From: a virus
Lineage: Duplodnaviria > Heunggongvirae > Uroviricota > Caudoviricetes
Length of the DNA stretch: 4,271 nucleotides
Strand: one strand, 5' to 3'
Virus record (IMG/VR): IMGVR_UViG_2648501110_000019
The notes below the pieces were generated by a model, which saw only the letters and a list, made by a program, of their open reading frames with translations, was not told the origin of the DNA and did not search any database. The position numbers and the translations under genes were made by a program. Below, one piece after another: positions 2,385-3,077 of this stretch. How positions within the stretch are numbered: the stretch's first letter is position 1; the number at the start of each line of letters is the position of its first letter.

Positions 2385-3077
2385 ATGACATTTTCAGAAC
2401 GACTTGATTTAGCTATGCGCAACGCAAAATTTACGCAAGGTAGGCTGGCCAAAGAAGTGGGTATGGCTCAGTCCAGTGTTAATCAACTACTTAACAAAGC
2501 CAACGGTTCCAGAAAAACAGTCGAAATAGCAAAAGTTTTGGGCGTTAACCCGGAATGGCTCGCATCGGGTGTTGGCCCAATGGAAATCGTGACCTCTGCA
2601 GACTCACACCAAATACGTAACATTTCTGAAGATTGGGTTACTGATTCGTATGTCGTGGATGTTTTAGACATCAGATATAGTTGCGGACCTGGTAGTTATA
2701 ACTCTGATTTTCCTGATATTGTCAGATCTATAGCGATAGAACCAGGATACGCATCAAGAGTTTTTGGCGGCAGACCAGCATCAGCAATCAAAGCAATAAA
2801 CGCCCACGGCGACAGTATGAAAGGCACAATAGACCCTGAAGACTTGGTATTTGTAGATGTATCAGTTCGCACATTTAATGGTGATGGTATATACGCCTTT
2901 ACATACTCTGGAACATCGCACATCAAAAGACTTCAAAAAATCAAAGATACTCTAACGGTGATATCTGACAACCCAGCTTACAAGGATTGGGCTATCGAAC
3001 CGGAAGACTTCGAACAACTTCACATTGACGGAAAAGTAATTGTCAGTTGGCCTATGACACTACACCGTTTTGCATAA
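2385..3077 (+). CDS. CI/LexA-like phage repressor, 230 aa: N-terminal XRE HTH plus C-terminal S24 self-cleaving peptidase domain
   Basis: ORF-track ORF 2385..3077, with GGAGG 8 nt upstream of the ATG. N-terminal HTH (LAKEVGMAQSSVNQLLNKANGSRKTVEIAKVLGVNPEWL). C-terminal domain carries the S24 catalytic dyad in its canonical contexts: Ser144 in GDSM and Lys181 in IKRL, 37 residues apart as in LexA. Candidate cleavage dipeptide is Cys100-Gly101. Confidence 0.9.
   Translation: MTFSERLDLAMRNAKFTQGRLAKEVGMAQSSVNQLLNKANGSRKTVEIAKVLGVNPEWLASGVGPMEIVTSADSHQIRNISEDWVTDSYVVDVLDIRYSCGPGSYNSDFPDIVRSIAIEPGYASRVFGGRPASAIKAINAHGDSMKGTIDPEDLVFVDVSVRTFNGDGIYAFTYSGTSHIKRLQKIKDTLTVISDNPAYKDWAIEPEDFEQLHIDGKVIVSWPMTLHRFA

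Follow-up and report, generated by a model that had tools for sequence, protein, structure and literature searches.

An ordinary CI-type repressor with a predicted Cys-Gly self-cleavage bond in a deleted lambdoid prophage

The window analysed here, by which we mean the whole stretch of 4,271 nucleotides, belongs to a Caudoviricetes record of IMG/VR (IMGVR_UViG_2648501110_000019). A lambdoid prophage in E. coli E110019 is 99.7% identical to it and carries genes for integrase, Q, lysis, terminase and capsid. The window contains the gene of a cI-type repressor and a divergent cro-like gene, together with operator-like repeats, a predicted promoter, a terminator-like hairpin and a deletion junction (Table 1).

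Table 1. Features of the window, with coordinates counted from its first nucleotide, and the basis of each assignment.
Feature	Coordinates	Strand	Basis or position
Deletion junction	1416..1417	.	blastn against the E110019 prophage (L001)
cro-like gene, YdaS-family HTH, 95 aa from ATG 2265, divergent from cI	1978..2265	-	Pfam, PHROG, RefSeq
Operator-like palindrome TATCGGAAAGCCGATA (putative repressor site)	2335..2350	.	cro-cI intergenic region
cI-type repressor gene, 230 aa	2385..3077	+	ORF list, Pfam, PHROG, phmmer against PDB, Foldseek, RefSeq identity
Cys100-Gly101, predicted scissile bond (P1-P1'), codons TGC GGA	2682..2687	+	alignment with reference sites
Ser144, predicted nucleophile, GDSM (residues 142-145), codon AGT	2814..2816	+	invariant in 120/120 homologues
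Lys181, predicted general base, IKRL (residues 180-183), codon AAA	2925..2927	+	invariant in 120/120 homologues
Intrinsic-terminator-like hairpin and T-run, directly 3' of the cI stop codon	3096..3123	+	sequence
Operator-like site AATCGATAAACCGATT, overlapping the pL-like promoter region	3129-3144	.	repeat family and pattern scan
Sigma-70-like promoter (TTGACA, 17-nt spacer, TATTAT; 11/12 matches), pL analogue	3143..3171	+	motif
Operator-like site AATCGGCAAACCTATT, overlapping the pL-like promoter region	3154-3169	.	repeat family and pattern scan

The repressor consists of a 434-like HTH domain (about residues 1-66), a linker and a C-terminal Peptidase_S24 domain. Pfam places the latter (PF00717) at residues 127-219 with an E value of 7.5e-17, scoring 61.5 bits where the cut-off is 23.3; the N-terminus gives weaker matches to HTH_3 and HTH_19, which fall under the curated cut-offs. 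The whole protein (residues 1-229) matches phrog_4, 'transcriptional repressor', in the PHROGs database (E = 1.4e-53). In sequence searches of the PDB, residues 4-64 match the 434 repressor and Cro (phmmer matches residues 3-62 of the 434 repressor with E = 3.6e-4), and residues 133-213 match UmuD and UmuD'. An AlphaFold2 model of the repressor has a mean pLDDT of 77.9. Based on Foldseek, this model resembles phage 186 CI, which is the best match, as well as lambda CI, LexA and UmuD', the last three with a probability of 1.00, while 434 Cro is matched with a TM-score (target) of 0.86.

The same protein is found elsewhere. The repressor is 100% identical to a lambdoid-prophage CDS of E. coli E110019 (WP_000144248.1), which RefSeq labels 'LexA family transcriptional regulator'. 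The identical 230-aa repressor is also found, together with the same cro-like gene, in other prophage mosaics from gut metagenome contigs (L004-L007). In these mosaics cro is followed by BssS-family and Rha-family genes at the place where the window has a 102-aa ORF.

The surroundings of cI are those of a genetic switch. The product of the cro-like gene matches YdaS_toxin in Pfam (E = 1.6e-14) and phrog_35 (E = 1.2e-22), and is named 'transcriptional regulator' in RefSeq. Scanning the window for a pattern of the form AATCGG-N-AAA-CCGATT gave 4 matches at 3 sites compared to 0.14 expected, and none of 200 shuffles reached 4. A single candidate operator was found on the OR side, the palindrome between the two divergent genes. 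The sigma-70-like promoter, overlapped by the remaining two sites, heads a rightward early operon downstream of cI. The terminator-like hairpin itself spans 3096-3113. As sequence motifs, this hairpin, the promoter and the operator-like repeats are consistent with an immunity region like that of lambda.

The first gene of the pL-like operon (3221-3631, plus strand) encodes a 136-aa HTH protein that matches phrog_4836, 'CII-like regulator', with an E value of 2.2e-50. This protein would be a second regulator encoded just after cI, taking the place of an N-type antiterminator. The cro-cI intergenic region holds, in addition, a second palindrome at 2309-2333 (ATATTC...GAATAT, core AACGTT), which overlaps the predicted leftward -35 element. 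This palindrome differs from the ATCGG/CCGAT operator motif and may be bound by the cro-like protein.

Compared to the prophage of E110019, the window has suffered a large deletion. Positions 1077-1417 correspond to 5204-5544 of the E110019 prophage (97.9% by blastn) and positions 1416-4174 to 15001-17760 (99.7%), so that the window lacks 9,456 bp of the E110019 prophage; 2 nt at the junction are common to both flanks. The left flank is the region downstream of the lysis genes and the right flank the region upstream of the helicase gene. Lost with the segment are the genes for a DEAD/DEAH helicase, a toprim protein, the Q antiterminator, a SASA esterase, a holin, a lysozyme and Rz-type lysis proteins. 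This supports an earlier suggestion, made in a preliminary description of the sequence, that the prophage is defective. In the E110019 copy, the genes of Q and of the large subunit of terminase are themselves pseudogenes. The 36-mer spanning the junction has no match in the species-representative genomes, and none of the complete E. coli genomes in the collection carries the junction or covers at least 80% of the window.

Positions 1-1256 of the window hold TonB-family and DUF3950 genes, which other prophages carry in the interval from the lysis cassette to the terminase genes. The product of the TonB-family gene (601-942, minus strand) has 113 aa and a signal like that of a lipoprotein (LSSLVMGC); Pfam finds a TonB C-terminal domain in it (E = 2.7e-15), and PHROGs labels it 'Rz-like spanin' (phrog_1267). 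In related prophages this gene is found between the lysis cassette and the gene for the small terminase subunit, next to a DUF3950/YlcI-YnfO gene; in the window the DUF3950/YlcI-YnfO gene occupies 328-468 on the plus strand. A C-rich tract (1567-1609, plus strand) with at least 6 runs of at least 3 C lies in the interval from the deletion junction to the 102-aa ORF. Read on the sense strand of the leftward cro operon, these are G-runs that could fold into a G-quadruplex. The tract is inside the segment that matches E110019 at 99.7%, where it lies upstream of the helicase gene.

Self-cleavage of S24 proteins relies on a Ser/Lys dyad and a scissile bond ahead of it, and we searched the translation of the repressor for both. 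The preliminary description had named the Ser of GDSM and the Lys of IKRL as the dyad, and both are present, as Ser144 and Lys181. It had also noted the absence of Ala-Gly from the linker, and this observation extends further: the dipeptide is absent from the entire 230-aa repressor. A hydrophobic strand, VVDVLDIRYS, was said to lead up to the dipeptide Cys100-Gly101, 44 residues ahead of the Ser. These coordinates are borne out, with the strand at residues 90-99 and Cys100 44 residues N-terminal to Ser144. Cys100 is the one Cys of the repressor and Cys100-Gly101 its one CG dipeptide. The further statement that this is the only Gly-containing dipeptide at the right distance was correct in its position and overstated in its 'only', because Pro102-Gly103 lies two residues on; between the HTH domain and Ser144 there is also Gly128-Gly129.

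We aligned the best 120 homologues of the repressor with E. coli LexA, lambda CI and UmuD using MAFFT. The scissile bonds known from experiment in these proteins are A84-G85 in LexA, A111-G112 in lambda CI and C24-G25 in UmuD (PMC9926225; PMC8565304), so the earlier account, with UmuD cleaved at Cys24-Gly25 and LexA and lambda CI at Ala-Gly, agrees with the literature (PMC9926225). The alignment with the three proteins, proposed there as a check, puts Cys100-Gly101 in the same columns as all three known bonds. Likewise, Ser144 and Lys181 share columns with S119 and K156 of LexA, S149 and K192 of lambda CI and S60 and K97 of UmuD. The shared columns support the prediction that Cys100-Gly101 is the homologue of the S24 scissile bond.

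The homologues themselves carry a strong signal at this site. Gly101, Ser144 and Lys181 are invariant in all 120, and position 100 is Ala in 98 of them and Cys in the other 22. The invariance of Gly101 and the restriction of position 100 to Ala or Cys constitute a signal far above chance. The 22 Cys-type sequences are also the 22 closest among the best 120 homologues (63-100% identity), and their hosts belong to six genera (E. coli, Salmonella, Providencia, Plesiomonas, Yersinia and Edwardsiella). All 22 keep the motif YSCG(P/S)G(S/T), down to 63% identity, while its flanks are variable; in the next clade (V/A)SAGPG stands at the same site. The spacing from the scissile residue to the Ser is 44 residues in the repressor compared to 35-38 in LexA, lambda CI and UmuD. 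This difference is due to an insertion of about nine residues (FGGRPASAI) ahead of the strand that bears the Ser.

A HMMER profile of the family was built without any of the reference sequences and then aligned to phi80 CI, lambda CI, LexA and UmuD. The 'aG' of the profile falls on Cys111-Gly112 of phi80 CI and on Ala111-Gly112 of lambda CI. For LexA and UmuD the local alignment spans the catalytic core and stops short of the cleavage-site region, and therefore the match of their cleavage sites comes from the MAFFT alignment alone. The AlphaFold2 model has a pLDDT under 50 at residues 102-110, so that the cleavage-site region is poorly modelled.

Among the proteins compared, phi80 CI (JX871397, PHI80_47) is the nearest precedent. 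It has the same HTH and S24 architecture as the repressor, possesses the GDSM Ser and the Lys, and belongs to the same family, whose profile aligns with it end to end (E = 3e-40). In BLASTP, MAFFT and profile alignments alike, its C111-G112 (...KDIEFACGDG...) falls on C100-G101 of the repressor (...DIRYSCGPG...). Phage phi80 is lambdoid; CI is its immunity repressor, a cro-like gene is transcribed divergently, and operators are present at OR and OL. RecA-mediated cleavage of phi80 CI has reportedly been mapped to this same Cys-Gly bond, C111-G112. The two proteins nevertheless differ in their operators and DNA specificity and are only 22% identical over the BLASTP alignment. Moreover, phi80 is a viable phage, whereas the repressor copy described here is in a deleted prophage.

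UmuD shares with the repressor a Cys-Gly bond (its scissile Cys24-Gly25) and a dyad with the Ser in GDSM (Ser60/Lys97; PMC9926225). The UmuD' core is also the best match in sequence to the C-terminal domain among solved structures (E about 5e-4), with 30-33% identity in the Foldseek alignments. Unlike the repressor, which has a HTH domain and is sited in a phage immunity region, UmuD is devoid of a DNA-binding domain, is a subunit of polymerase V and is cleaved between dimer subunits. No umuC-like gene was found in the window or in the related E110019 locus, and the presence of the HTH domain also sets the repressor outside the UmuD group. The resemblance to UmuD is thus confined to the P1 residue and the catalytic core. 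Of the 'UmuD-type' scissile bond in the preliminary description, the homologous Cys-Gly stands, while UmuD gives way as the nearest precedent to phi80 CI, which is closer and of the same family.

Lambda CI and LexA use the S24 Ser/Lys pair for self-cleavage stimulated by RecA filaments, and their cleavage-site columns align with those of the repressor. Lambda CI also occupies the same type of genetic switch. Differences lie at P1, which is Ala in lambda CI (A111-G112) and LexA (A84-G85) compared to Cys in the repressor, and in the spacing from the site to the Ser (38 in lambda CI, 35 in LexA, 44 in the repressor). The N-terminal domain of LexA is a winged helix, whereas that of the repressor is 434-like.

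Based on the sequence, then, the ORF encodes an ordinary CI-type prophage repressor with a predicted Cys-Gly self-cleavage bond. We consider it probable that this repressor of a lambdoid prophage binds its operators through the HTH domain and that RecA-stimulated self-cleavage at Cys100-Gly101 derepresses the early promoters. The HTH domain would bind the operator-like site beside the cro-like gene as well as the two that overlap the pL-like promoter. When DNA is damaged, filaments of activated RecA would hold the cleavage-site region in its cleavable conformation, a dependence that we infer from the homologous proteins. The next step, as expected by homology, would be a nucleophilic attack of Ser144, activated by Lys181, on the peptide bond between Cys100 and Gly101. 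The predicted products are a 100-aa DNA-binding fragment (11.06 kDa) and a 130-aa C-terminal fragment (14.33 kDa) with the N-terminus GPGSYNSDF, and their separation would release the early promoters from repression. Cys at P1 is a frequent alternative, within the family, to the canonical Ala; phi80 CI and UmuD have it as well. Since this copy has lost its genes for replication, Q and lysis, induction would be limited to the remaining early genes and would give no phage. SOS-triggered cleavage could still turn on these remaining genes, and host physiology may be affected.

Alternatively, the S24 fold and dyad may have been kept in a protein that is poorly self-cleaved in vivo and is instead inactivated by an antirepressor, or that persists as a stable relic of a dead prophage. 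Phage 186 CI, the top structural match, is a repressor that does not undergo cleavage and whose inactivation depends on the antirepressor Tum. The prophage copy in the window carries a deletion, the identical repressor adjoins a Rha-family gene in other mosaics, and the poor modelling of the cleavage-site region also leaves room for such a protein. We nonetheless regard this explanation as unlikely, because the invariance of Ser144, Lys181 and Gly101 and the limitation of P1 to Ala or Cys form a pattern expected only under selection for cleavage. In addition, a scan for an SOS-controlled antirepressor found no LexA box in the window to drive one. The relic version meets a further difficulty, namely that the repressor is 100% identical across several other prophage contexts and is therefore not a decaying pseudogene.

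Another possibility concerns the geometry of the reaction: Cys100-Gly101 could be cleaved between dimer subunits, as in UmuD, whereas LexA and lambda CI are cleaved within a single subunit. In the structure of UmuD with RecA, the cleavage region of one protomer is placed for cleavage by the other protomer (PMC9926225). The repressor core is closest in sequence to UmuD', and the connector that joins its cleavage region to the core is longer. The domain architecture and the family are, however, those of CI repressors, and the family profile matches phi80 CI far better than UmuD (3e-40 and 5e-15, respectively), which makes an intersubunit reaction very unlikely in our view. Self-cleavage at a different bond, such as Pro102-Gly103 or Gly128-Gly129, is the least credible alternative and would be surprising: more Gly dipeptides do exist between the HTH domain and Ser144, and the distance of Cys100 from Ser144 exceeds that in the reference proteins, but Cys100-Gly101 alone aligns with all four reference scissile bonds and Pro at P1 is without precedent among the S24 cleavage sites reviewed. 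All three alternatives lose ground to RecA-stimulated self-cleavage at Cys100-Gly101 mainly because the close homologues show no variation in the dyad or the Gly and have nothing but Ala or Cys at P1.

Finally, we estimated how frequent Cys-Gly is in the family. A HMMER scan of 1.84 billion cluster representatives (50% identity) yielded 6,240 relatives, and P1-P1' residues were counted in the best 142 full-length representatives of these. The Ser/Lys dyad is kept in 131 of the 142. Among these 131 dyad-bearing representatives, Ala-Gly is found in 70 (53%), Cys-Gly in 28 (21%) and Met-Gly in 16 (12%), with other residues in the rest. At around 21% of representatives, Cys-Gly is therefore not a special feature. 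Judged from these sequences, it is a common and already described variant of the S24 cleavage site, and the repressor adds a further predicted member.

It may also make a difference whether Ala, Cys or Met stands at P1. The residue could set subclasses of CI by their cleavage kinetics and induction thresholds, or Cys100 could make derepression sensitive to oxidation or thiol modification. The strict conservation of YSCG(P/S)G in the six genera and the 53 : 21 : 12 % split of Ala-Gly, Cys-Gly and Met-Gly would be compatible with such a role, but we hold either version to be quite unlikely. If the redox version were true, the sole thiol of the repressor, placed at the scissile bond, would link derepression to oxidation or thiol modification.

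For the ordinary CI-type repressor that we favour, the significance beyond annotation is little. The analysis assigns a likely scissile bond to a widespread enterobacterial prophage repressor for which RefSeq gives the family label only. It has a practical side for motif searches as well. Since Cys-Gly and Met-Gly are frequent in this CI family, screens that require Ala-Gly to call a repressor 'cleavable' would overlook roughly a third of such repressors. We know of no characterised S24 cleavage site with Met at P1; Met-Gly occupies the scissile column in 16 of the 131 representatives, for example P0157, P0176, P0215, P0220 and P0221.
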